Origin: Candidatus Dojkabacteria bacterium
GTDB taxonomy: Bacteria; Patescibacteriota; Dojkabacteria; SC72
Assembly (NCBI GenBank): GCA_050950165.1
Contig: JBMNHC010000001.1
Coordinates: 657,073 to 721,072 of the forward strand
Reading direction: 5' to 3'
DNA length: 64,000 nucleotides
The notes under the pieces were generated by a model, which was not told the DNA's origin, ran no database searches, and saw only the letters and a program-made list of their open reading frames with translations. The translations under genes were made by a program, and so were the position numbers. Positions 1,334 to 46,666 of the stretch are shown one piece after another; position 1 is the first letter of the stretch, and each line of letters starts with the position of its first letter.

Positions 1334-2257
1334 ATGAGAAACTATTACAGAATAATACTTGGATCTGGAAATATTTATGCTGAACAAATGTACGATGAGG
1401 GATATGTAGGTGTTAGTTTCCTCCCTGCAATAGATTTAAAAGGTAGGCTACATGAGAATTGGAGAGATTTTAATAAAGAATTCATACCCATTTATCTAGA
1501 AAAATTCCCTGAAAAATCAAGGGTAGCAGCAGGATTAGCCTGTGGTTCTATTTGGACTGTATCTAAAGGATTACAGATAGGGGATATTGTTCTAAGTCCA
1601 GATGGTGAAGGAGCATATTATATTGGCGAAGTAGAAGGAGATTATGAATATCATAAAGATACTGTATTACCACATAGAAGAAAGGTAAAATGGTATGAAA
1701 AGAAAATCCAAAGGAAAGAAATGAGTGAAAGTTTGCAGAATTCAACTGGATCAATAGGGACTGTATGTAATATATCTGGATATTCTGAAGAAATCGATAA
1801 TCTGCTAGAAGGTAATAATCAAAGGGTAGTTAGAGTACTTGATGAAACTGTTGAAGATGCTTCTAGTTTTGTTTTAGAAAAGCATTTAGAAGATTTCTTA
1901 GTAGAAAATTGGGATAAAACAGCATTAGGCAAAAATTATAATATCTATGAGGAAGAAGGAGAGCTAGTTGGACAACAATTTCCTACAGATACTGGTCCTA
2001 TTGATATTTTAGCTATTAGTAAAGATAAGAAGGTATTACTTGTTGTAGAGCTAAAGAAAGGAAGAATTAGTGATGTAGTTGTTGGGCAATTACAAAGATA
2101 CATGGGTTATGTTAAAGATGAATTAGCAGAGAAAGATCAAACAGTTAAAGGAGTGATAATAACATTAGAAGATGATATTAGACTTAGAAGAGCCTTATCT
2201 GTAACAAATAATATTGAGTTTTACAGATACGAGATTGATTTTAAGTTAAAAAATTGA
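1334..2257 (+). CDS. Two-domain protein: N-terminal EVE/PUA-like beta-barrel fused to a C-terminal NucS/RecB-like PD-(D/E)xK nuclease. Candidate modification-dependent (type IV-like) restriction endonuclease.
   Basis: The N-terminal half has a PUA/EVE-like pattern (IGDIVLSPDGEGAYYIGEVEGDYEY). The C-terminal half, GPIDILAISKDKKVLLVVELKKGRISDVVVGQLQRYMGYV, matches the NucS-type D...D...E-x-K motif. It lies directly downstream of hsdR. Confidence 0.55.
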   Translation: MRNYYRIILGSGNIYAEQMYDEGYVGVSFLPAIDLKGRLHENWRDFNKEFIPIYLEKFPEKSRVAAGLACGSIWTVSKGLQIGDIVLSPDGEGAYYIGEVEGDYEYHKDTVLPHRRKVKWYEKKIQRKEMSESLQNSTGSIGTVCNISGYSEEIDNLLEGNNQRVVRVLDETVEDASSFVLEKHLEDFLVENWDKTALGKNYNIYEEEGELVGQQFPTDTGPIDILAISKDKKVLLVVELKKGRISDVVVGQLQRYMGYVKDELAEKDQTVKGVIITLEDDIRLRRALSVTNNIEFYRYEIDFKLKN

Positions 2258-4003: not shown

Positions 4004-4780
4004 ATGTCTACCTTACAAAATTACTACAACAATATATATACAGAAGACGATAGACTCTTTAAAGACCAAAAACATAAAACAGAATTCATACTAACTACAG
4101 ACTACATAGACAAATATCTTAAAAAAGGTATGAAGATATTAGAACTAGGAGCAGGTACAGGAGCATACTCTCTTCTTTATGCATCTAAAGGATATGAAGT
4201 AGATGCATTGGAATATGTAAAGGAGAATTTAGATATCCTTAAATCTAAGATAACTGAGGATATGAATATTAATCCTGTACTAGGAGATGCAAGAGATCTA
4301 TCAATATATGAAGATAATACCTTTGATATGGTACTAAACCTAGGACCTCTCTATCACCTAGAAGGAGAGGATAGGGATAAGGTAATACAAGAAGCTAAGA
4401 GGGTATGTAAAAAGGGAGGATTAATATACTTTGCATATATATCTAACAACTTTACATTCGTAAAATGCATAAAGAAATTTGATAATTACATCATAGAATA
4501 CAAAGAAGAGATACTAGAAGGATATAGATTAAGAGATAGTCAAAATATATTTACATTCATGTATCCAAGTGAAATGGAAGAGTTAATGAAGAAGTATGAC
4601 CTATCTAAAGTACATCATCTAACAACAGATGGTATTAGTAGCCTTCTCATTGATCGAATAAATGAATTACCAGAAGATCAGTATGAAGTATGGATAGATT
4701 ACTTAAGAACAACAGCAGAGAGAGAAGACCAACTAGGATATGGAGAACATCTATTGTATATTGCTAGATGGGAATCATAG
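4004..4780 (+). CDS. Class I SAM-dependent methyltransferase.
   Basis: Glycine-rich SAM-binding motif ILELGAGTGAYS, followed by an acidic residue (EVDALE). Confidence 0.75.
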   Translation: MSTLQNYYNNIYTEDDRLFKDQKHKTEFILTTDYIDKYLKKGMKILELGAGTGAYSLLYASKGYEVDALEYVKENLDILKSKITEDMNINPVLGDARDLSIYEDNTFDMVLNLGPLYHLEGEDRDKVIQEAKRVCKKGGLIYFAYISNNFTFVKCIKKFDNYIIEYKEEILEGYRLRDSQNIFTFMYPSEMEELMKKYDLSKVHHLTTDGISSLLIDRINELPEDQYEVWIDYLRTTAEREDQLGYGEHLLYIARWES

Positions 4781-35847: not shown

Positions 35848-36777
35848 ATGCCAGATAGAACATATGACATCGCTATTGTAGGTAGTGGACCTGCAGCTTT
35901 CTCTGCAAGTATATATGCAAGTAGGTATAAACTAAGTAATATTGTATTTGGAAAAGTATTGGGTGGAACAATCTCTGAAGCTCACAAAGTCTGTAACTAT
36001 CCTGGTATAGATGAAATCTCTGGATATGACTTAGGTATGAAATTTTTTGAACAAGCTAAAAGATTGGGTGGAGAACATCTTGCAGAGAGTGTTATTGAAG
36101 TTAAGAAAGAAGAAGATCTTTTTAGAATAACTACTGATACATCAAAAGAGTTTGTTGCTAAATCTGTAATACTTGCTACTGGAAGTAATAGGAATAGGCT
36201 TAATCTACCTGATGAAAATCGTTTTTTAGGTAAAGGCCTCTCGTACTGTGCAACCTGTGATGGTATGTTTTTTAAAGATAAGGTTGTTGGAGTTGTTGGA
36301 GGAAGTAGTGCTGCTGTAATGAGTGCTGTTATGCTTGCTGATATAGCTAAGAAGGTATATATCATCTACAGAGGTACAGAGCTTAGAGGAGAGCCTATGT
36401 GGGTAGATCAGGCAATGGAGAGAGAGAATATTAAGATAATATATACTACATTGGTTCTTGGTTTGGAAGGTAAGCAGGTTCTTGAAAGAGTAAAACTTTC
36501 TAAGGTATACAACGGTTCACAATATCTTAGTCTAGATGGACTTTTTGTTGAAATTGGTTCTACTCCTAATCTAGATTTAGCAAATCAATTAGGAATAGAG
36601 TTGGCTGATGAGGGATACATTAAGGTTGCAAGCAATCAGAGTACCTCCTTAGAGGGAGTATGGGCTGCTGGAGATGGTACAGACGGATCTAATAAGTTTA
36701 GACAGGTAATTACTGCTGCATCAGAGGGCTCCATTGCAGCTAATTCAATATTTAAATATCTTAGAAAGAGTAATTAA
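35848..36777 (+). CDS. trxB: Thioredoxin-disulfide reductase.
   Basis: FAD motif DIAIVGSGPAAFSA, redox-active CATCDG, NADPH GGG/GGSSAA motif. The ATG at 35848 gives the canonical N-terminus; the track ORF from a TTG at 35710 is probably an artefactual extension. Confidence 0.85.
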   Translation: MPDRTYDIAIVGSGPAAFSASIYASRYKLSNIVFGKVLGGTISEAHKVCNYPGIDEISGYDLGMKFFEQAKRLGGEHLAESVIEVKKEEDLFRITTDTSKEFVAKSVILATGSNRNRLNLPDENRFLGKGLSYCATCDGMFFKDKVVGVVGGSSAAVMSAVMLADIAKKVYIIYRGTELRGEPMWVDQAMERENIKIIYTTLVLGLEGKQVLERVKLSKVYNGSQYLSLDGLFVEIGSTPNLDLANQLGIELADEGYIKVASNQSTSLEGVWAAGDGTDGSNKFRQVITAASEGSIAANSIFKYLRKSN

Positions 36778-37283
36778 GATTTTGAATTAACAAAATCTAC
36801 CCACTCTTGTAAGTAGTTAGAGCTAGACCACACTTTATCCTTACCTACTCCATATTCAATTCGTCCTCCATATGATTCAATTAGATCTGCTTCTGCTTTT
36901 AACCCACTGTTAGGATTGTTTCTATCTTTGTCATTTCTATCTCCACCTTTTGTAAATATATCAGGTTTGATAATTGCAAGTGCTTCTGAACAGTTAGTAG
37001 CTTCTGGGTTTTCGTGTATGACTACATAGTCAACTCCCTTAATTGCATCAACTATATCTGCTCTATCTACTGCAGGTATGAAAGGTTTGCCTTTTTTATT
37101 AATCGCTCTGCTATCTCCATCTACAATAATTACCAAAATATCACCAAATTTCTTTGATTCTAATATACAAGAGACATGTCCTGGATGGATAGGGTCAAAA
37201 TATCCCGATGTAGCAACTATACTCTTACCTTCTTCTTTTAACTCATCCCTTATCTTCCCAAACTCTTCAAGTTTTACTACCAT
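36774..37283 (-). CDS. Cytidylyl/adenylyltransferase family protein, RfaE domain II (heptose-1-phosphate adenylyltransferase)-like.
   Basis: HxGH nucleotidyltransferase motif in TSGYFDPIHPGHV; overall similarity pattern to the HldE C-terminal domain. Confidence 0.7.
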   Translation of the reverse strand: MVVKLEEFGKIRDELKEEGKSIVATSGYFDPIHPGHVSCILESKKFGDILVIIVDGDSRAINKKGKPFIPAVDRADIVDAIKGVDYVVIHENPEATNCSEALAIIKPDIFTKGGDRNDKDRNNPNSGLKAEADLIESYGGRIEYGVGKDKVWSSSNYLQEWVDFVNSKS

Positions 37284-37491
37284 AGTATTTTTCTATTCAA
37301 TTTATTCTACATTAAAACAGGTATATATTTTGATTGCAACCCTCTTAATTCATAACCCATATTGTAGATAACACAACCCCTAGTATTTACTACAAACTGA
37401 AGATACTGCATATTGTAGCCAATAACTAAAATTTGGATTACTACAAGTCTTTGACGAACACAATGGGTTGCGATAGCCTAGATTACTAAGT

Positions 37492-37505
37492 ACAACATAT
37501 TGTGT
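37492..37505. promoter_or_regulatory. Candidate NrdR box directly abutting the nrdR start codon.
   Basis: acaACATATTGTGt resembles the NrdR operator consensus acaCwAtATaTwGtgt. CATATTGT half-site-like copies also occur at 37358 and 37409. Confidence 0.4.
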
Positions 37506-37506
37506 A

Positions 37507-37950
37507 ATGAGGTGTCCATACTGTGCATGTACAACTTCTAAAGTTGTAGACAAAAGAGATAATAGTGAGGACTTTTCTACTAGAAGAAGAAGGCAGTGTT
37601 TAAGGTGCGGTAGAAGATATACAACATACGAGAGGATTGAAAGGATAGATGTTGTAGTGATTAAAAGAGATGGTTCTTTAGAAAATTTTGACTGTGAGAA
37701 GTTAAGAAAAGGGATTAAGAAAGCTGTTGATTTGGATAAGATTACTGAGTCGGATATTGAGCTGTTTTGTGAGGAGGTAGAGAGAAAGGTAATGGTTAGT
37801 CCAAATCCACTAACTACAGCAGATATTGGAAATATGGTGTTGGAGTGGTTAAGGACTCAAGATCCACTAGCATATATGAGGTTTGCTAGTGTGTATAAAA
37901 AATTTGAAACTTTAAAAGATTTAAAAGAAGAATTAGAGAAATTAATTTAA
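37507..37950 (+). CDS. nrdR: Transcriptional repressor NrdR.
   Basis: Zinc ribbon CPYC...CLRC plus an ATP-cone. Confidence 0.9.
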   Translation: MRCPYCACTTSKVVDKRDNSEDFSTRRRRQCLRCGRRYTTYERIERIDVVVIKRDGSLENFDCEKLRKGIKKAVDLDKITESDIELFCEEVERKVMVSPNPLTTADIGNMVLEWLRTQDPLAYMRFASVYKKFETLKDLKEELEKLI

Positions 37951-37960
37951 TAATACTGCC

Positions 37961-40900
37961 GTGAAAACTGTTCATTTCAAGGTTAAAAAAAGAGATGGAA
38001 GGTTAGTACCGTTTGAGATAGAAAGAATTGAGACAGGGATATTTAAAGCTGCCGAAAGTGTTGGAGGTGATGATAGAGAGAGAGCAAAAGAGGTAGCAAG
38101 TGAGGTACTTAAGAGATTAACTAAGAAGCATAAGAAAGAGCTTTTCATTACAACTTCTGATATTGCTAAGTGCGTTAAAGAGACTCTAAAGGATATGGGG
38201 CATGGTAAGACTGCTACTGCTTTTGAGTTGTTTGTGGATCTTAACAACAAGGTAAAGAATATTAAATCGTTAATAGATGCTGAATCCTTAATTAAGGGAT
38301 ATATTAGAGAAGAGGATTGGAGAGTTAAAGAGAACAGTAATATGGCATACTCTTGGCAAGGGTTAAATAACCATATCTCTACTTCAGTTCAGGCTAATTA
38401 CTGGCTCTATACCATATATCCTAAGGTTGTTTCTAATGCTCATATAAATGCAGATTTACATATTCATGATTTAGGTATGATTGCAACATATTGCTGTGGA
38501 TGGGATTTACAGGATCTTTTGCTTAGAGGTTTTACAGGGGTACCAGGAAAGATCTCTTCTAGTCCTCCTAAGCACTTCTCTGCTGCATTGGGACAGTGTG
38601 TTAACTACTTGTATACCCTTCAGCATGAAGCAGCAGGGGCACAGGCTTTTTCTAGTTTTGATACTCTACTTGCTCCATTCATACGATATGACAAATTAAG
38701 CTACAAAGAGGTAAAACAGAAGATACAGGAGTTTCTTTTCAATATGAATGTTCCTACTAGGGTAGGATGTCAGACTCCTTTTACTAATATCACCATGGAT
38801 CTAGTACCTCACGGTATGTTAGCTAAAGAAAATGTCATCATTGGTGGTAAGCCACAGAAAGAGAAATATGGAGATTTTCAAAAAGAGATGGATATGCTAA
38901 ACAGAGCGTTTTGTGAGGTGATGATGGAGGGAGATGCACAAGGCAGACTCTTTTCATATCCCATTCCTACATACAATTTAACTAAAGATTTTGATTGGGA
39001 GAGTGATAAATACAAATCTTTGTGGGAGATGACAGCTAAATATGGTATCCCCTACTTCTCTAACTTCATTAATTCCGATATGAATCCTGATGATGCTAGA
39101 TCTATGTGTCCTTTAGCAGGAGATGAGAGGGTGTTAGTTAGGTCATCAAGAGCAAGAGGTTTAGAATTTTCTACTCTCAAAGGGATATATGAAGGAGACT
39201 TAAAAGAGCAAGAGTATGAGATATTTAGTAATGGGGGTTTCGTAAAAGGGAAGTTTGCTAAATTCAAAAACCAGAAGATGATAGAGGTTGTTCTTTTAAA
39301 TAACCATAGTATTAAGATGTCGGTTAATCATTTGAATTTTGTTTTAGAAAACAAGAAATCAGATATTAAAGAATTAACTGGTTCAGAACTTACTAAGGGT
39401 ATGTATCTTCCATATTCACTTAATCAGTATGAAGGGAGAGGTGGAGATGAAGAGTTAGGATATTTTGTAGGAGCGTTTGCAGGTAATGGGTCTTTTAATG
39501 AGGAAAGCTCTGTACTCTTTTCTCTCCCTATTAATCAAAAAAAGAGTGTTGCAGAGAAACTAATTAAGATATCTGAGAGATACTTTGGTGCTAGTTATAC
39601 AATTAAAGAGAACAAGAAGAGTAAACTTCTCATATTGGAAATATTCTCAAGAGCTGCTGTAGGTTTGTGTAAAGATTTTGTAAGTGGCAAAGGAAGAGAG
39701 AGAGTCTACACTTCTAAATTGTATGAGATGTCTAAAGAGTTTAGATTGGCAGTAATTGAAGGTCATTTAGATATAAATGGTGGGAGGAAGAATAGGATAT
39801 ATACGTCTTCATTCAAGATGGTTGAGTCTTTAAATATGTTAACAGCTACTTTAGGTACTTCAACTGCAATATATGAAGAAAGGGGGAAGAAAGGATTAGA
39901 CTTTTCTGTTTTGATATATGGGTTATGCAGAGAGAAGTATGGGGATTTCTGGTTTAAAAAAGATGGTATGTTGTGGATGAAGATTAAAGATATTAAAAAG
40001 ATTCCTAACTCTACTGCTTACTGTTTTGAGGTAAAAAACAATATTCCCATGTTTACAGTTGGTGGGAGTGGTATTCTAACTCACAACTGTAGGCTTAGAT
40101 TGGATAATAGAGAGCTAAGAAAGAGAGGTGGGGGTTTGTTTGGTGCAAATCCACTAACAGGAAGTATTGGGGTTGTAACTATTAACATGCCTAGGATTGG
40201 GTATCTAGCAAAAAATAGAAGGGATCTCTTTAAGAGGATTAATAATTTGATGGATATTGCTAAAAGGAGTTTGATGATTAAACGGTCCGCTATAGAGAAA
40301 TATATGGAGATGGGACTCTATCCATACTCTAAGTTCTACCTTAATAATATTAAAAAGAGATTTGGTGAATATTTTAAGAATCACTTTAATACAATTGGGA
40401 TATTAGGTTTGAATGAGGCGTTAATAAATTTCTTAGGTAAGGATATTACTACTAAGGAAGGAAGAGAGCTTGGCTTAGAGATTATGGACCATATGAGAGA
40501 GAGATTAATGACATATCAGATTGAGACTAATCAGCTATTCAATCTAGAGGCTACTCCAGGAGAGAGTACAACTTATAGATTTGCTAAGGCAGATAAGGCT
40601 AAATATGGAGATAAGATCATTGCGGCTTCTGATTTTGGCAAAAATCACTGTTCTGCTCCATACTACACTAACTCTTCTCAGCTTCCTGTAGGCTTCACAG
40701 ATGATGTATTTGAGGCTTTAGATATGCAGGATGACTTCCAGTGTAAATATACAGGAGGAACGGTTCTACACATCTTCTTAGGTGAGAGAATGCCATCAGC
40801 TAGGAGTGTAAGAAATTTTGTTAGAAAGGTTGCAGAAAACTACAAATTACCCTACTTCTCCATCACACCTACTTTTAGTGTATGTCCCAAACATGGATAT

Positions 40901-40984
40901 ATGTCTGGTGAACATACATATTGTCCTAAGTGTGATGCAGAGTCAGGGTATATTGATGGTATGCAATTTGAAGAAATTAAATAA
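37961..40984 (+). CDS. nrdD: Anaerobic ribonucleoside-triphosphate reductase (class III) catalytic subunit. It contains an in-frame intein and ends after its Zn-ribbon, before the glycyl-radical motif.
   Basis: N-terminal ATP-cone, the NrdD core and a C-terminal CPKH...CPKC zinc ribbon. The intein lies between ...DDARSM and CRLRLDN. Confidence 0.9.
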   Translation: MKTVHFKVKKRDGRLVPFEIERIETGIFKAAESVGGDDRERAKEVASEVLKRLTKKHKKELFITTSDIAKCVKETLKDMGHGKTATAFELFVDLNNKVKNIKSLIDAESLIKGYIREEDWRVKENSNMAYSWQGLNNHISTSVQANYWLYTIYPKVVSNAHINADLHIHDLGMIATYCCGWDLQDLLLRGFTGVPGKISSSPPKHFSAALGQCVNYLYTLQHEAAGAQAFSSFDTLLAPFIRYDKLSYKEVKQKIQEFLFNMNVPTRVGCQTPFTNITMDLVPHGMLAKENVIIGGKPQKEKYGDFQKEMDMLNRAFCEVMMEGDAQGRLFSYPIPTYNLTKDFDWESDKYKSLWEMTAKYGIPYFSNFINSDMNPDDARSMCPLAGDERVLVRSSRARGLEFSTLKGIYEGDLKEQEYEIFSNGGFVKGKFAKFKNQKMIEVVLLNNHSIKMSVNHLNFVLENKKSDIKELTGSELTKGMYLPYSLNQYEGRGGDEELGYFVGAFAGNGSFNEESSVLFSLPINQKKSVAEKLIKISERYFGASYTIKENKKSKLLILEIFSRAAVGLCKDFVSGKGRERVYTSKLYEMSKEFRLAVIEGHLDINGGRKNRIYTSSFKMVESLNMLTATLGTSTAIYEERGKKGLDFSVLIYGLCREKYGDFWFKKDGMLWMKIKDIKKIPNSTAYCFEVKNNIPMFTVGGSGILTHNCRLRLDNRELRKRGGGLFGANPLTGSIGVVTINMPRIGYLAKNRRDLFKRINNLMDIAKRSLMIKRSAIEKYMEMGLYPYSKFYLNNIKKRFGEYFKNHFNTIGILGLNEALINFLGKDITTKEGRELGLEIMDHMRERLMTYQIETNQLFNLEATPGESTTYRFAKADKAKYGDKIIAASDFGKNHCSAPYYTNSSQLPVGFTDDVFEALDMQDDFQCKYTGGTVLHIFLGERMPSARSVRNFVRKVAENYKLPYFSITPTFSVCPKHGYMSGEHTYCPKCDAESGYIDGMQFEEIK
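39107..40087 (+). mobile_element. Intein (327 aa) with a LAGLIDADG homing-endonuclease domain, inserted in nrdD.
   Basis: Block A CPLAGDERVLV, block B SVNHLNF, LAGLIDADG-like LGYFVGAFAGNGS and AVIEGHLDINGG, and terminal blocks F/G AYCFEVKNN...GGSGILTHN followed by the +1 Cys. Confidence 0.8.
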
Positions 40985-41004
40985 TTTTTTACTGCTCATT
41001 TAAT

Positions 41005-41142
41005 ATGACAAAGAAACCAAAAGTAGTACAGAGACAAAGGTGCGAGGTTTACTCAAGGGTTGTAGGTTACATTAGACCTGTTACACAGTGGAACCCTGGT
41101 AAACAGTCAGAGTTCTCTGATAGGAAAACATTTATAGCCTAA
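41005..41142 (+). CDS. Stand-alone 45-aa ORF encoding the NrdD glycyl-radical domain (RVVGY motif). It is in a different frame from nrdD and 20 nt downstream of its stop.
   Basis: MTKKPKVVQRQRCEVYSRVVGYIRPVTQWNPGKQSEFSDRKTF contains the class III RNR glycyl-radical signature R-V-x-G-Y and the following WN.GK..EF.DR block. Confidence 0.55.
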   Translation: MTKKPKVVQRQRCEVYSRVVGYIRPVTQWNPGKQSEFSDRKTFIA

Positions 41143-41143
41143 G

Positions 41144-41824
41144 ATGTTAATTGCTGGTTTTCAAAAATCTACACTACTAGACTATCCTGGAAAGGTAGCG
41201 GCTATTCTTTTTACATATGGGTGTAACCTTAGGTGTGAATATTGTCATAATCCTGAATTAGTAATATTGCCTTGTAAAAAAGAAACCATTATTACAGAAG
41301 AAGAGATATTCTCTTTTTTAAAAGAACGAAGGTCTCTTTTAGATGCAGTTGTAATTACAGGTGGAGAACCTACTTTACAAAAAGACTTAATTCCATTTAT
41401 TAAAAAGATTAAAAGTATGGGATATCTTGTTAAACTAGATACCAATGGTACTAACTCAAAGATTGTTAAAAAGATACTAGATTTAGATATTGTAGATTAC
41501 TGGGCAATGGATGTTAAGTACGAAAAAGAGATGTACAAACAGAATCTATACAAAGAGATTCAAAAGAGTATTAAAATGATAATGGAGAGAGCAAAAGACT
41601 ATGAATTTAGAACAACATATGTAAAAGGAATACATACAAAAGAATCAGCAGAGAGTATAGGGGGTTTAATTAAGGGAGCAAAAAGATACTATATCCAAAA
41701 CTTTAGACCAGGAAAAACCATCAACTCTACTTTAAATATGACCAACTCCTTCTCTCCCAAAGAGCTAAAGGAGATAAAAAGGATAGTTTCTAAATATGTA
41801 AAAAATACAGAGATCCGAGAATAG
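41144..41824 (+). CDS. nrdG: Anaerobic ribonucleotide reductase activating protein (radical SAM).
   Basis: CNLRCEYCHN radical-SAM cluster motif. Starts 1 nt after the glycyl-radical mini-ORF. Confidence 0.85.
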   Translation: MLIAGFQKSTLLDYPGKVAAILFTYGCNLRCEYCHNPELVILPCKKETIITEEEIFSFLKERRSLLDAVVITGGEPTLQKDLIPFIKKIKSMGYLVKLDTNGTNSKIVKKILDLDIVDYWAMDVKYEKEMYKQNLYKEIQKSIKMIMERAKDYEFRTTYVKGIHTKESAESIGGLIKGAKRYYIQNFRPGKTINSTLNMTNSFSPKELKEIKRIVSKYVKNTEIRE

Positions 41825-41825
41825 C

Positions 41826-42476
41826 CTAATTAGGATTATCCAATACCATAACGACCTTCCCATTAATTAAAGAATCACTATTCACATCTAAATATATCGG
41901 CTTATGAACAGGATTACTAGACTTCGGGTAAAGAATAGTCATATTCTTTTCTCTCTTAATATTTTTAACAGTTGCACAACCATCTATAATAGCTAATACA
42001 ACGTCCCCATCCTCAATCTCAGCATCCTTTTGAATAATGACATACTGCCCATCTTCAATATTTTTTCCATTAACCTCTCTCATATTCATAGAATCCCCTT
42101 TAACTATTAAAGAGAAAAGATTACCCCGATTCTTTACAAGAGACTTCTCCAACTGTAGTATACCTATATTCTCCTCCTCTGCTAAAACCAGAGGATCCCC
42201 ACCATTAGCATATCCTAAAATAGGTATACCAACTAAATATTCATACAACAAATCCTCCTCAGTCTCATTAACTATATGTATACCCCTCGGTTCACTAGTT
42301 CTAATGATAAAACCCTTCCTCTCCAATGCCTCCAAATGACTTACTACTCCTCTCTTAGTAGATATATGCAACATCCTCTGTAGTTCAGTAAGAGAAGGTG
42401 CACTTCCGTTCTCTAAGTAAAAATCTCTGATTACTCTTAGAACTTTACTCTGTTTCTTTGTAAGATTTATATCCAT
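41826..42476 (-). CDS. lexA: LexA repressor.
   Basis: N-terminal winged HTH (LTELQRMLHISTKRGVVSHLEALERKGFI) and a C-terminal S24 peptidase with Ser (VKGDSMN) and Lys. Confidence 0.85.
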   Translation of the reverse strand: MDINLTKKQSKVLRVIRDFYLENGSAPSLTELQRMLHISTKRGVVSHLEALERKGFIIRTSEPRGIHIVNETEEDLLYEYLVGIPILGYANGGDPLVLAEEENIGILQLEKSLVKNRGNLFSLIVKGDSMNMREVNGKNIEDGQYVIIQKDAEIEDGDVVLAIIDGCATVKNIKREKNMTILYPKSSNPVHKPIYLDVNSDSLINGKVVMVLDNPN

Positions 42477-42505
42477 ATTTTTAGGTATACCAATTTATTA
42501 CTACT

Positions 42506-42549
42506 AGTATACTCCTTGTGGTATACTACACAAGTACTTATAGTATACT
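42506..42549. promoter_or_regulatory. Candidate SOS operator(s) in the lexA / DUF4870 divergent intergenic region.
   Basis: Three copies of the perfect 8-bp palindrome AGTATACT / GGTATACT (42506, 42520, 42542). The middle copy is embedded in the dyad CTTGTG-N8-CACAAG (42515..42534). Confidence 0.35.
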
Positions 42550-42612
42550 ATTGACTCCACCTCTCTATGATATATATACTTGTAATATATAACTTTTGTA
42601 TTAATTAATATA

Positions 42613-42954
42613 ATGGCAGAGGCTAAAAAGATCTACTCTCTAAATGAGATCAAATACAATGAGAAGAACAAGGCTTTAGCTATGGTTTCTTGTATCCCTC
42701 TTGTAGGTTTAATTATGCTTTTTGTAGAAAAGAAAGATCTGTTTGTCAGATACCATGCTGCACAGTTTGCTTTCTTTAACCTTATCCTCTTAGTAGGCAT
42801 TATCCCAATAATTGGTTGGATACTTTCTCCTATCTTAGGAATCATGTCCTTCATTGCATTTATAATAGGTTTAGTTAAGATAAGTGGGGGAAACAGATTT
42901 GATATACCAGTACTTTCAGGATGGGGATTAAAGTTAATGAGTGCTACTGAATAA
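42613..42954 (+). CDS. Small multi-TM membrane protein, DUF4870-like; divergent from lexA.
   Basis: VRYHAAQFAFFN motif plus 3 TM helices. Confidence 0.55.
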   Translation: MAEAKKIYSLNEIKYNEKNKALAMVSCIPLVGLIMLFVEKKDLFVRYHAAQFAFFNLILLVGIIPIIGWILSPILGIMSFIAFIIGLVKISGGNRFDIPVLSGWGLKLMSATE

Positions 42955-42980
42955 ACTTCACTAACCTATCGAATTAAAAA

Positions 42981-43012
42981 AGGAGAGTGTAATTACTCTC
43001 CTTTCTTTTTTT
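42981..43012. terminator. Bidirectional rho-independent terminator between convergent genes.
   Basis: 8-bp stem aggagagt/actctcct with a 6-nt loop, flanked by an A-tract (5') and a T-tract (3'). Confidence 0.5.
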
Positions 43013-43031: not shown

Positions 43032-45971
43032 CTACTTAATTTCAGGTTGCCAGTTTCCTCTACCCTCCAATACTCTTACAAAGTATGACTGTAAGCTATT
43101 GATTGGGAAGTCAAAACCGTACTCCATATCTATACCGTTCTCTACTGTTAGTTGATATCCATCATATCTTTGCATATCTGATTCCCATCTACTTACATTG
43201 TCTGCTGTAAAGTCTACTGGTTCATATTTATTTATACCCTTTATCAATGACTTAGCAGTATATTGTGCTACATTAGATCCATATGTACCAATTAGATTCC
43301 ATCCAGGATAGAGAGTTATTGGAGCTCTATCTTCAGAAGATTCTAATTTTACTGGTTGTCCAACAATTGAGATAGAGATATCTCTATTAGCTTTAATAAT
43401 GTATCCTTGTCCAGGTATTAACTGAAAGTCATTATTATCATATACCTCTACATTCTGACCTACTACAGACCATTTACCATCATATTTAGAGATGGAGTAG
43501 AAGACATTACCGTATACAGAATTGAGCTTTTTTAACAGTCCTGCAGCTGTTCTACTATCAGTATAGTCGATTAAGAATGGGAATGTTACGAAGTTAAAAC
43601 CTTCTGCAAGATTGTAGTCATATGTTCTAACAACATTGGTTAATTCAATCTTAGAGGCTAAATCAGATACATTTTTGTCTACTCCTTTATCATATGCACC
43701 ATTTTTATTTACATCTATATACACCATTATATTTCCATCTTTTACTTGCAAATCTTTTTTAGACACACTAAATGCATAGAATTCTCCTTCATATGTAAAT
43801 GTGTACATACCTTCTGTTAAATTAGTAAACATTCCTGTTTGAGTATCAAGAATAAATTCACTTGTCTCTTGTGCAATACTTTTATTTGATACTCCTTTTA
43901 TATTGTTGTAGAAAGACAGAGGAGAAGAGACACATCGTTTATTTTGACACACAGCTCCGTTTGTATTACAAGTTTTATTATCATCCGATGCATTACGACA
44001 AGAAGCAACCTCTGGGCAAATCTGATCTTGAGTAATAGCTCCTCCTTTGTATCCTCCACTTTCACAATAGCAATTATCAGAATCAGGACATGGCTCGTTT
44101 ATTCCTAATATCTTAAGATTTACCGCAGATTTAATTTCACTCCCTCCTTGAGGGACTTCTTTAACCTTGAACCAGCTACAATGATACATTTTACCTACAA
44201 TATTACCACCAGAATCCTCAGTCTCAACATAGCACCTACTCCCCAACTGACATTTGGCATCTTCCCCACAATTATACACTGGTCCTGAGTATGGAGCAGT
44301 TGTTCCCCCATATCCCTCCATCTGTCCTGAACTAATCTGAATCCAACTGCCATTATGACATATATACTCCTGCCCTCTTTCATTACGTTTATAAAGATTG
44401 TTGTTTGTCCTCTCGTAACATTCCCTTACATCTTCTGGTGGAGAACTATTAGGGCCTCCATTCTGATTAGAGCTATCATCTCCATTAGGACTTACATCCC
44501 CCCCATCAGACCCCCCACTATGTCCAGAGCCCTGTCCAGTACCTGTATCACATGAACGATACGTTGTTACCTTTCCTTTTTTTCCGTTTACACAGCACTC
44601 GTCACCAGTTCTAAGAGAATGGAAAACATCCTGGGAAGTGTCAACACATCCATTAGAATCATTTGTTTTCTTTTCCTCTGATTGTTTTGGAGGCTGGATT
44701 TTCCCACCAAGATATGATTTATCATTACAAGTATTGCTATCTATAGTCTTCCATACAAAAAACCCTTTATCCCCCTTGGCACATATTTTACAATCATTAC
44801 CATACTTTACTGTAGAACCTTCTACTCCTCCACCAGAGCATTCTGGTTTTGATGTTTTAGCAAGTTCCTGTAGCCCTTGTTCCAAATTTTGTCCTCCTCC
44901 ACAACCTCTTCTTTCTAGAACTGCTGAATCACATGCACACTCTTGTCTTGTACCCCCAACACTCTCCACACACCCTCCGCAGTATGCTACAAATTGACAA
45001 CCCGATGCACTTGCACCTTTAACAACCTTACCCTTTGTACTATCTACCCTAATTAAAACATCAGGATCCTCTTTTTCTTCTGTATATCCAGATATATTAA
45101 TAACCATTGTTTCTGCAGGAGAAGACTCGCTCATACTTATTCTCTTTTTCCACTGTCCTAAAGGCCCTAAATCTAGATATACCTCTCCATATATATTAGC
45201 TATTGTTTGAGAATATTTTTCAAAGAAAAGCTCCCCTTTACTATCTACAGCCGTTGAAATATCAATATACCAAGCACCCTCCTCATTTAGAGAACTAGAA
45301 TATGTATTACTTCTCTCTCCTGAAAGCTCCTCTAGGTAGTTAAAGTAAATTACACCATCAGAGACACCAAGTAATTCCTCTATAATTAAATCCTTATTAT
45401 CCGCATTCTTAACAAAACCATACGTAGGAATTGGTGTCTCAATAGATTTTGCTACCTCTAATGTCTTAACTGTTGAATCCTTTTTAAAAAGATTAGAGTT
45501 AATAAACAGAAGACCATCTCCTACCATTACACCATACTCACTCTCTGGACTAACACCCCTTACCTCAATATGATGAGTATAGTAGGAACCCTTCTTTGTA
45601 ACAGATTTCTCTACTACAATATCATCTAAAGATACTGACAGAGAACTACTACCCCATATCTTCTCATTAGATCTTTCTGTTGCATCTAGCTCTGAGTATC
45701 TAATATCCCTAGTATCAAACCCCAATGTCTTACCAAGTGATGTAAAAGATATCGGTAATCTATTCTTCCCATCTATTACTGAAACTACTCCCTTCGTAGG
45801 AAACCTAGTAGTCCAACTAACAGTAAAAGAATTAGATGAAATATTTGTATATTTAATATCCTTAGGTAATATCCTTACAAAACCTACTATTAATATCAAA
45901 AGAAGTAAAACTCCTAAAGATATTAAAGAAATATTTAATACCTTTCTTAGTTTAAAAGATTTAATATCCAT
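43032..45971 (-). CDS. Very large (979 aa) membrane-anchored, secreted cysteine-rich protein with an FN3-like N-terminal domain.
   Basis: N-terminal TM helix; FTVSWTT FN3-like strand; a central region with more than 40 Cys and Gly-rich stretches; no enzymatic motif recognised. Confidence 0.6.
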   Translation of the reverse strand: MDIKSFKLRKVLNISLISLGVLLLLILIVGFVRILPKDIKYTNISSNSFTVSWTTRFPTKGVVSVIDGKNRLPISFTSLGKTLGFDTRDIRYSELDATERSNEKIWGSSSLSVSLDDIVVEKSVTKKGSYYTHHIEVRGVSPESEYGVMVGDGLLFINSNLFKKDSTVKTLEVAKSIETPIPTYGFVKNADNKDLIIEELLGVSDGVIYFNYLEELSGERSNTYSSSLNEEGAWYIDISTAVDSKGELFFEKYSQTIANIYGEVYLDLGPLGQWKKRISMSESSPAETMVINISGYTEEKEDPDVLIRVDSTKGKVVKGASASGCQFVAYCGGCVESVGGTRQECACDSAVLERRGCGGGQNLEQGLQELAKTSKPECSGGGVEGSTVKYGNDCKICAKGDKGFFVWKTIDSNTCNDKSYLGGKIQPPKQSEEKKTNDSNGCVDTSQDVFHSLRTGDECCVNGKKGKVTTYRSCDTGTGQGSGHSGGSDGGDVSPNGDDSSNQNGGPNSSPPEDVRECYERTNNNLYKRNERGQEYICHNGSWIQISSGQMEGYGGTTAPYSGPVYNCGEDAKCQLGSRCYVETEDSGGNIVGKMYHCSWFKVKEVPQGGSEIKSAVNLKILGINEPCPDSDNCYCESGGYKGGAITQDQICPEVASCRNASDDNKTCNTNGAVCQNKRCVSSPLSFYNNIKGVSNKSIAQETSEFILDTQTGMFTNLTEGMYTFTYEGEFYAFSVSKKDLQVKDGNIMVYIDVNKNGAYDKGVDKNVSDLASKIELTNVVRTYDYNLAEGFNFVTFPFLIDYTDSRTAAGLLKKLNSVYGNVFYSISKYDGKWSVVGQNVEVYDNNDFQLIPGQGYIIKANRDISISIVGQPVKLESSEDRAPITLYPGWNLIGTYGSNVAQYTAKSLIKGINKYEPVDFTADNVSRWESDMQRYDGYQLTVENGIDMEYGFDFPINSLQSYFVRVLEGRGNWQPEIK

Positions 45972-46096: not shown

Positions 46097-46666
46097 ATGA
46101 AAAAAACAGTTAAATATCTAACCATACTACTTCTCTTTGTAATACCCTTCTGTACAAAAACATTTGGGGAAGAACTACTCTATACCCCTCATCCTAATTT
46201 TGACTATGTTGCTGTTAATAACATATTAGCTTCGAAAGAAGAAGAAGGATTTTTAAAAATATATAGAGACGATGTAATTAAAATTGCTGGTATTGGGGAA
46301 GTAGGTAAGAAAATTGTAATATCTTTGGACAAGGAGAAATATGAAACTACTGTAGATCAATATGGTAACTGGTTTGTGATCTTCTCTGTACAAGATTTAG
46401 ATATGGGCTCATATCCTGTTACAATTGAAATAGGTAATTCTAAAAAGAAAGAGCATTTAATTACACTCATTGTTGAGAAGGGAGATAGAGTGGAGATGAA
46501 TAACAGTTTAAATCAAGAAAATGAACAGAATTCTGGAGTAGTAAGAGTAGGAGAGATTGAAATAGATTCAAAAACTAAGAATATACTATGTATAATATTA
46601 CTACCTACTCTTTTTGTAATAGGGGTTGTAGTTGGAATATATATTGGTAAAAGGATTAAGAAATAG
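46097..46666 (+). CDS. Hypothetical secreted protein with a C-terminal TM anchor.
   Basis: Signal peptide plus the C-terminal hydrophobic helix ILCIILLPTLFVIGVVVGIYIGKRIKK. Start-stop overlap with the next gene. Confidence 0.5.
   Translation: MKKTVKYLTILLLFVIPFCTKTFGEELLYTPHPNFDYVAVNNILASKEEEGFLKIYRDDVIKIAGIGEVGKKIVISLDKEKYETTVDQYGNWFVIFSVQDLDMGSYPVTIEIGNSKKKEHLITLIVEKGDRVEMNNSLNQENEQNSGVVRVGEIEIDSKTKNILCIILLPTLFVIGVVVGIYIGKRIKK

Follow-up and report, generated by a model that had tools for sequence, protein, structure and literature searches.

Class III ribonucleotide reductase (RNR) is the textbook glycyl-radical enzyme, with the radical on its own C-terminus. What then should be made of a reductase gene that stops before the radical glycine is reached? 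The question is raised by the nrd locus in a 64-kb stretch of DNA from a Candidatus Dojkabacteria bacterium (the window; coordinates are counted from its first letter, and all genes of the cluster are on the + strand). The reductase gene, nrdD (37961..40984, GTG start), has 1007 codons, among them those of an intein, and encodes an ATP-cone, a catalytic barrel, a zinc ribbon and a 16-residue tail, and no glycyl-radical loop. The RVxGY motif is found past the stop codon, across a 20-nucleotide (nt) gap and a change of frame, on an open reading frame (ORF) of its own of only 45 amino acids (aa), and the gene for the activase, nrdG, follows. The initial annotation had left a choice between a split RNR whose radical domain is supplied in trans, a recent disruption such as the scar of a mobile element, and an assembly error. 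We consider it very likely, from the comparisons presented below, that the locus encodes a genuine and functional class III RNR made of two polypeptides.

One family profile in two reading frames

The C-terminal end of nrdD reads CPKH(x9)CPKCDAESGYIDGMQFEEIK-TAA, with the stop codon at 40982..40984; the 1007-codon frame thus terminates ...TPTFSVCPKHGYMSGEHTYCPKCDAESGYIDGMQFEEIK-TAA. The zinc ribbon, Cys975-x2-His978 ... Cys988-x2-Cys991, occupies 40883..40933 and reads CPKHGYMSGEHTYCPKC. It is followed by the tail DAESGYIDGMQFEEIK, which comprises the 16 residues after CPKC and, with the TAA, takes up 40934..40984. The frame had been described as ending in EEIK-TAA directly after the zinc ribbon; the ending is right, and the ribbon is separated from it by this tail, which is conserved and carries the signature CDxExG[YF]. 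An AT-rich intergenic gap of 20 nt (ttttttactgctcatttaat, 40985..41004) leads to the glycyl-radical peptide gene (41005..41142), 45 codons encoding MTKKPKVVQRQRCEVYSRVVGYIRPVTQWNPGKQSEFSDRKTFIA between the ATG at 41005 and the TAA at 41140..41142. The radical residue, Gly21, is the GGT codon 41065..41067 inside the motif CEVYSRVVGYIRP. The product begins with MTKKPK and contains the stretches CEVYSR and VVGYIRPVTQWNPGK, and the large subunit ends ...GMQFEEIK. The start of nrdG at 41144 is 1 nt past the stop of the small ORF. Rechecking of the coordinates bore out the earlier placement of the radical signature 20 nt downstream of nrdD in another frame, on an ATG-started mini-ORF that closes 1 nt before nrdG.

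Do the two pieces belong to one enzyme? The Pfam model NRDD (562 positions) covers the large ORF up to model position 531, at aa 995 (E = 6.7e-175, 583 bits versus a cut-off of 26.2), and positions 530-562 of the same model are found on aa 10-43 of the small ORF (E = 1.9e-10, 40.5 bits versus 26.2). Since the two matches abut at 531/530, they represent one family profile cut at a single point and not a chance resemblance. Either side of the cut has about 12 further residues outside the profile, and these have no counterpart in canonical NrdD. The large ORF also matches NCBIfam NF006126 (984 bits, cut-off 548) and TIGR02487 (494 bits, cut-off 326), and it retains all columns that are invariant across 75 homologues. 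All four Cys/His ligands of the zinc ribbon are present; none of the three Cys varies in alignments A2 and A3, where conservation of the His is 90% or more. The activase is intact as well, with a match to TIGR02495 (NrdG2) of 190 bits against a cut-off of 131 and a CxxxCxxC motif. The Pfam and NCBIfam matches of the small ORF are solely to NrdD models, with none to Gly_radical or GrcA, and neither database holds a family for stand-alone NrdD radical proteins. Among 36 diverse copies of the small ORF, 15 residues are invariant.

Recurrence and origin of the split

A search with the 45-aa product gave 203 clusters (90% identity). The homologues in the best 120 of these are all 39-69 aa long and nearly all Met-initiated, one having an annotated GTG start, and several of them recur in numerous contigs of up to 729 kb, which their sources name Dojkabacteria or Patescibacteria. 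The initial annotation had proposed looking for the same split in related genomes. In a scan of one genome per species, which gave 593 relatives of which the best 80 were classified by script, the split was found in 27 species-level genomes of Dojkabacteria, other Patescibacteria and DPANN archaea (L001-L005, L007-L009, L012, L015, L020, L024-L026, L028, L030, L037, L045, L049, L051, L054, L056, L057, L068, L074, L075 and the window). Taken together, independent assemblies of these groups that have the break number in the hundreds. The adjoining nrdD is without a glycine loop in 27 of 27. Between the large-ORF stop and the small-ORF ATG the spacing varies from an overlap of 29 nt to about 190 nt; frame offsets 0, 1 and 2 are all present, and any of TAA, TAG and TGA may be the stop. 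Start codons were scored in 24 loci, and in each of them the small ORF has its own ATG, 5-25 codons (usually 8-13) before the invariant Cys. In 25 of the 27, nrdG follows the small ORF, mostly at -13 to +45 nt, and the other two are contig ends. Variants of the radical motif were also seen: RVVGW in the split peptides of L074 and L132 (QRQECTVYSRVVGWITP), and RVVGK for RVVGY in fused NrdDs (P0179, P0204).

This spread of gap geometries bears on recoding, by which bypassing of the T4 gene 60 type, a frameshift or read-through would yield a single NrdD of normal length. In the window, a TAA at 40978..40980 closes the small-ORF frame before the nrdD stop is reached; a single slip at that stop therefore cannot fuse the ORFs, as the initial annotation had correctly noted. 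nrdD has AAA as its final sense codon, directly before the stop, and the small ORF has in-frame AAA at its codons 4 and 6, which would offer a possible pair of take-off and landing sites; such a pair is expected by chance, however, lysine codons being common in a 34% GC genome. A bypass from AAA to AAA was dropped after comparison with the relatives, in which gap geometry, frame and flanking codons (including the last sense codon) are not conserved. Read-through is formally possible in L001 and L005, where the gap is in frame and stop-free, but the gap of L012 has further stops. The RNA fold of the junction (40940..41060) is no better than that of shuffled sequences (z = 0.37), and an Rfam scan of 37000..43000 at E <= 1 returned only a chance REN-SRE match inside nrdD and none at the junction. 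The own ATG of every scored small ORF at a similar distance from the motif, and phage copies (see below) with no upstream nrdD to join, also speak against recoding, which we judge to be very improbable. Decoding of UGA as glycine (genetic code 25) to fuse the ORFs was likewise rejected, the stop of the window being TAA; among TGA-ending split loci checked for this code, L003, L004 and L007 are out of frame and L051 is archaeal.

Could the stop and the frame change be an artefact, produced by an assembly or sequencing indel? The 45-aa protein of the window has no exact match on record, and the junction includes an A/T-rich stretch, AAATAATTTTTT. Against this, the same TAA stop, a gap of 18-20 nt and the ATG are present in close relatives from separate assemblies: L082 and L083 (two JGI samples), L084 (an ENA sample) and L081 (an NCBI metagenome-assembled genome) all have the 20-nt gap, and in L001 the gap is 18 nt, which alters the frame relation. 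Gene order is also shared, L082-L084 having a trxB-like gene, nrdR, nrdD (689 aa), a 20-nt gap, a 44-aa ORF, nrdG and lexA. A single near-identical small protein has entries in 64 blocks of the collection, and 23 contigs bearing it were inspected. Both frames of the window are closed, so one indel cannot restore a single frame, and an indel does not account for the dozen or so extra residues on each side of the break. Assembly error, one of the options first listed, is thereby effectively excluded, and we assign next to no probability to an artefact of any kind. The nrdD of L081 itself looks like two ORFs owing to a run of N (a scaffold gap) in the finger-loop region (about 1470..1485), which is not a second real split.

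If nrdD had been freshly broken, by the scar of a mobile element or by a nonsense mutation or indel, the small ORF would be a vanishing remnant. The gene does carry an intein, and there are about 56 extra nt at the break in comparison with relatives in which the two parts are fused by a linker. The substitution rates point the other way. By the Nei-Gojobori method, non-synonymous values for the small ORF are 0.03-0.13 and synonymous values 0.6-1.0, that is, saturated, and the last 84 codons of the large subunit show the same pattern. Judged by these rates, the small ORF is under strong purifying selection, and the architecture has persisted where synonymous sites are saturated. The invariant residues of both ORFs and the intact nrdG also argue against decay. 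The relatives are too divergent to be copies of one contaminating sequence. The intein lies about 900 nt upstream of the break and is absent from close relatives having the same split, and is therefore unrelated to it. The 20-nt break itself holds no intron, endonuclease gene, intein or ORF. A recent disruption, as had been suggested, does not agree with a split older than synonymous saturation, with a gap that has no ORF, Rfam match or structure, or with a linker shared by fused relatives; we find it highly improbable.

How widespread are radical domains of this kind? When 1.84 billion cluster representatives (50% identity) were searched exhaustively with a profile, 5016 matched, and the best 150 of these were inspected. 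All but one, which is full length, are proteins of 45-149 aa with a Met or alternative start. None of them is directly preceded by a TPTFSxC-type zinc ribbon, so the small proteins are not contig-edge fragments of fused NrdD. Stand-alone radical proteins are widespread and make up at least 149 clusters at 50% identity. The other half of the split is equally recurrent: 91 of the best 120 full-length homologues of a fused relative are split large subunits, ending a few residues past CPxCDxExGY without a glycine loop.

The tails of these subunits give an indication of where the split came from. All 91 end in the motif CPxCDxExG[YF] plus 3-35 variable residues, and the CDxExG[YF] signature is also present in relatives that are fused yet have the same linker, namely P0241 (= L021), P0242-P0244, P0262, P0268 and P0151; P0241 reads CSICDEENGYVEGMVVDEKRQKCEVFSRIVGY. 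In canonical relatives CPxC is followed directly by (x3-8)EVYSRVVGY with no linker. The tail of the window, SGYIDGMQFEE-IK, and the head of its peptide, MTKKPKVVQ-RQRCEV, are collinear with the linker of the fused relatives. Since this linker is also present in the few fused relatives, the split is most simply read as a fission within a linker that already existed and is still part of one chain in some relatives (...CDEENGYVEGMVVDEKRQKCEVFSR...), and the fission would have added the 56 or so extra nt.

The same collinearity bears on protein trans-splicing, in which tail and head would be the halves of a split intein that ligates both chains. Inteins are known in the nrdD family, the nrdD of the window included, but a tail of 16 aa and a head of about 12 are far shorter than any intein, have no intein-family match and correspond to an ordinary linker, and no conserved nucleophile or His-Asn motif is found at the would-be junctions. 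The probability of trans-splicing is, in our opinion, negligible.

A different arrangement was observed in Bipolaricaulota/Acetothermia (L034, L035, L036, L042, L060), where the glycine loop is carried by an ORF in the +1 frame (with the pattern NYKEDxDGNLxLEDGxxIPAExRQKAEVYSR) that shares at least 23-68 nt with the end of nrdD. ATG is absent from four of these five ORFs (TTG or GTG occurs), and the ATGs of L042 are in a long upstream extension. These may be overlapping genes or cases of programmed frameshift. An ATG-started version (MKEDKDGNL...) occurs on the viral contigs L109, L114 and L118.

Radical domains that probably act in trans

Stand-alone radical domains are also found in other settings. 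In seven loci of the Parcubacteria/Moranbacteria type (L006, L014, L019, L023, L031, L038, L072) a complete nrdD with its glycine loop is followed by an extra radical protein of 86-88 aa and then by nrdG. This protein (4693..4953 in L006) has its own CxxC...CxxC ribbon in addition to the glycine loop, with the pattern MEKYxCHDCGK...KCKACH..DPxLRNF..TEVYSRVVGYIRP...CC, and is covered by no Pfam or NCBIfam family; in sequence and setting it has the look of a genuine class III RNR spare part in the style of GrcA. In L077 the same type of protein accompanies a truncated nrdD. Orphan versions of 117-170 aa, distant from nrdD, are present in Desulfobacterales. The Desulfobacterales ORFs (L011 at 4237..4644, L016, L018, L032, L041, L052, L058, L066) have CxxC...CxxC plus CEVYSRVVGYLRP and measure 125-429 aa from stop to stop; that of L011 (117-135 aa) lies among unrelated genes and not beside nrdD.

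Viruses provide a further set. IMG/VR viral contigs gave 218 relatives of the peptide, and the best 80 (L085-L164) were checked by tblastn over 3 kb on each side. A NrdD large subunit was found within that distance in 6 and NrdG in 2, so that 74 of the 80 have a radical peptide or small protein without NrdD or NrdG within 3 kb; many of these contigs are partial genomes. Neighbours of the copies checked include a Mu F-like head protein, a Gp46 scaffold, a tail fibre and a replication initiator resembling O. In L085, L086 and L090 the peptide gene comes right after a 'DNA repair exonuclease' gene (phrog_7339), with a 4-nt overlap in L086 (2995..3147). Conversely, among 80 viral contigs best matching this NrdD clade only two are also in the peptide list. 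A peptide gene without a reductase gene implies that the reductase served by the peptide is encoded at another place, in the simplest case by the host. Action in trans is thus independently supported, at the level of gene content, by the orphan phage copies and by the loci with a complete nrdD. Together with the recurrent break, purifying selection, the order nrdD-small ORF-nrdG and the number of clusters, this favours the first of the options offered initially, a split RNR with its radical domain in trans.

If complete nrdD genes and stand-alone radical domains coexist in other Patescibacteria, might the peptide of the window also be a facultative spare, the working radical domain being that of another full-length NrdD or RNR elsewhere in the genome? 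Only 64 kb of the genome is visible. However, the adjoining nrdD is entirely without a glycine loop in every split locus, regulator, activase and a likely reductant gene are all in the cluster, as one would expect around a working RNR, and no second gene of the NRDD type is present within the scanned 31.8-49.1 kb. A facultative role seems to us quite unlikely. The comparison with GrcA/YfiD made in the initial annotation is accordingly apt for the mechanism and not for the membership: the partner has no radical domain of its own, and the peptide would be obligate, not a spare.

How could the two chains work together? In an AlphaFold2 (AF2) model of the fused relative P0241 (mean pLDDT 81.7), a short helix comes after the ribbon, and then a coil linker (about 85), a strand at 702-705 (EVFS), Gly709 and a helix at 719-725. 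The model resembles the solved NrdD structures 9d3x, 8p2c, 4u3e and 1hk8 with a probability of 1.00 and a TM-score of up to 0.77. An AF2 model of the concatenated subunits of the window has the same order of elements (strand, Gly loop, helix), with a confidence of about 60 around the artificial junction. A phmmer search of the 100-aa concatenated junction against PDB sequences gave no match.

In the two-polypeptide enzyme that we propose, the large chain would supply the ATP-cone, the zinc ribbon and a catalytic barrel that bears the finger-loop cysteines, and the separately translated 45-residue peptide would supply a β-strand, the RVVGY glycine loop and a short C-terminal helix. The peptide would dock non-covalently at the place where the covalent C-terminus normally sits. 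NrdG would then abstract a hydrogen from Gly21 using S-adenosylmethionine, and the resulting glycyl radical would, as it does in canonical NrdD, give rise to the thiyl radical of the finger loop. Complementary charges of an acidic tail and a basic head were considered as a docking rule and rejected; pairs of the Dojkabacteria type have them and pairs of the type MEGDNKE.../...EQKEKLPL do not.

The three genes are arranged head to tail, with no terminator or promoter signals between them, and are probably on one transcript; the terminator scan found none anywhere in the cluster, and promoter-like sites are fewer than in shuffled sequences. The small ORF would be translated by re-initiation or by the general Shine-Dalgarno-independent initiation of this genome. 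A Shine-Dalgarno-like motif is present in 4 of 49 window genes (ORFs of at least 120 aa; 22 nt before the ATG). With such motifs rare genome-wide, a missing motif before the small ORF is normal and its AT-rich 20-nt leader is a usual start context. TATAAT-like hexamers occur very near the start codon in many window genes (the genome has 33.7% GC), a pattern that suggests leaderless or short-leader mRNAs.

What would be gained by such an arrangement? Oxygen destroys the glycyl radical, and the chain is cleaved at the glycine both in NrdD and in pyruvate formate-lyase (PFL). The activase of PFL accepts short glycine-loop peptides, and cleaved PFL is restored by GrcA/YfiD and by T4 Y06I, the phage homologue of GrcA/YfiD. 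With the radical on a 45-residue peptide, the damaged part could be replaced cheaply and a protein of 680-1000 residues spared. Repair or exchange as the rationale for the split is an idea we favour at somewhat less than even confidence. A freely exchangeable cartridge can also be envisaged: NrdG would charge the free peptide, charged and uncharged peptide would dock reversibly, peptide cleaved by O2 would be swapped, phages would bring their own peptide gene to keep the host reductase armed, and the 86-88-aa versions would be the first true RNR spare parts. We put this forward tentatively, as slightly more apt to be wrong than right.

Several considerations weigh against a functional two-polypeptide reductase. 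The evidence for the split enzyme, in the window and in related organisms, comes from gene sequences, and it is by homology that the peptide is expected to dock and NrdG to activate it. The AF2 models are single-chain proxies whose confidence in the radical domain is only about 60, and they yield no Gly-to-Cys geometry. Neighbour-joining trees interleave the split, fused-with-linker and canonical forms on short deep branches and do not fix the number of fissions and re-fusions. The junction of the intein leaves the mature finger loop doubtful, MCCR or MCR (see below). Finally, with the exact 45-aa protein of the window not found in the gene index, the support for its assembly comes from close relatives.

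The surrounding locus and known systems

The cluster opens with nrdR (37507..37950, +; 147 aa), the transcriptional repressor of RNR genes with Pfam Zn_ribbon_NrdR and ATP-cone domains, in a position that is kept in L082-L084. Two genes upstream of nrdR is a thioredoxin-reductase-like flavoprotein gene (35848..36777, +; Pfam Pyr_redox_2, E = 8e-43), whose location is kept in the same three loci; it is a possible source of reductant for a thioredoxin-dependent NrdD of the MCCR type. The cluster continues through nrdD and the peptide gene to nrdG (41144..41824, +), a radical-SAM activase that also matches Pfam Radical_SAM and has the cluster motif CNLRCEYC, and lexA is nearby. Beside the RNR cluster are two ORFs with no Pfam match at E <= 1e-4, one of 978 aa (43032..45971, -) and one of 189 aa (46097..46666, +), and the 807-aa ORF that comes next has five Rha78A-like Ig repeats.

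The intein (39107..40087, +; Pfam Intein_splicing and LAGLIDADG_WhiA) contains a LAGLIDADG domain and sits in the catalytic finger loop. Its junctions read ARSMC|PLAGDE...AYCFEV...ILTHN|CRLRLD, with one Cys on each side, and the finger loop is ARSMCCRLR in all of about 60 intein-less homologues compared. The mature loop would be MCCR if the intein begins at Pro and MCR, one Cys short, if it is a Cys1 intein. In a Pro-start intein, position 4 of block F is Cys, position 5 of block G is Thr, and block B is without Trp; save for this block B Trp, it fits the definition of class 3 inteins (PMC2807308). The same junction is found in L069 and P0355, and the intein of L054 is a different, canonical one located one residue upstream.

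How does the split reductase compare with known systems? It shares the family profile, the fold and the ATP-cone with the canonical NrdD and NrdG systems of E. coli, phage T4, Thermotoga maritima, Prevotella copri and Streptococcus thermophilus, and also the Cys/His zinc ribbon, RVVGY, an adjacent activase of the NrdG2 type and, if the intein is spliced from Pro, the MCCR-type finger loop. The glycine loop of the characterized NrdDs is the C-terminus of the catalytic chain, whereas in the window a gene of its own encodes it as a 45-residue product and the clade-specific CDxExGY tail closes the catalytic chain. Like GrcA/YfiD, the peptide is small, stands alone and consists of a glycyl-radical loop; both presumably depend on their cognate radical-SAM activase and work in trans on a large barrel, and both types have orphan copies in phages. 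The difference is that GrcA (about 127 aa) is homologous to the C-terminus of PFL and coexists with the complete PFL that it repairs, while the peptide of the window has 45 aa, is homologous to NrdD and would be obligate. A complete parent enzyme beside the peptide is not found in the window, only in the seven Parcubacteria/Moranbacteria-type loci. Spare-part proteins are known only for formate lyases, according to a review of June 2026 (PMC13450708).

Split RNRs have been described in other classes, namely the class II NrdJa/NrdJb of Pseudomonas aeruginosa and NrdA-a/NrdA-b of Aeromonas phage Aeh1 (PMC9669993, PMC3653736). In these too the catalytic subunit consists of two polypeptides that assemble into an active enzyme, but the class and the break point are different, the radical element is not separated, and the break of Aeh1 holds a homing-endonuclease gene. 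Split nrdD genes of phages have been put down to introns, inteins or unexplained fragmentation (PMC3653736). The α and β subunits of class I RNR offer a functional analogy only, in that a stable radical is kept on the smaller polypeptide, apart from the active site. The class I β subunit is unrelated, being ferritin-like with a metal-tyrosyl cofactor and long-range transfer; the peptide of the window is expected to place its glycine beside the active-site cysteine. We found no paper on a stand-alone NrdD radical peptide in a literature coverage that is incomplete, so that an earlier mention is possible. A split NrdD with a separate radical peptide is a conserved and apparently undescribed form of the enzyme in ultra-small bacteria, archaea and phages.

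A natural two-piece NrdD, if true, would mean that the radical loop of an RNR works in trans. A radical peptide of 45 residues can be synthesized chemically, so that site-specific isotope labels, unnatural residues and radical-transfer experiments would become straightforward. There are consequences for annotation as well, since the large ORF is routinely called a complete reductase and the small ORF is given the same reductase name or none. The orphan radical-peptide genes of phages would represent a new kind of auxiliary metabolic gene. For ultra-small, oxygen-exposed symbionts such as Patescibacteria and DPANN, the arrangement bears on the cheap upkeep of what is perhaps their sole route to deoxynucleotides.

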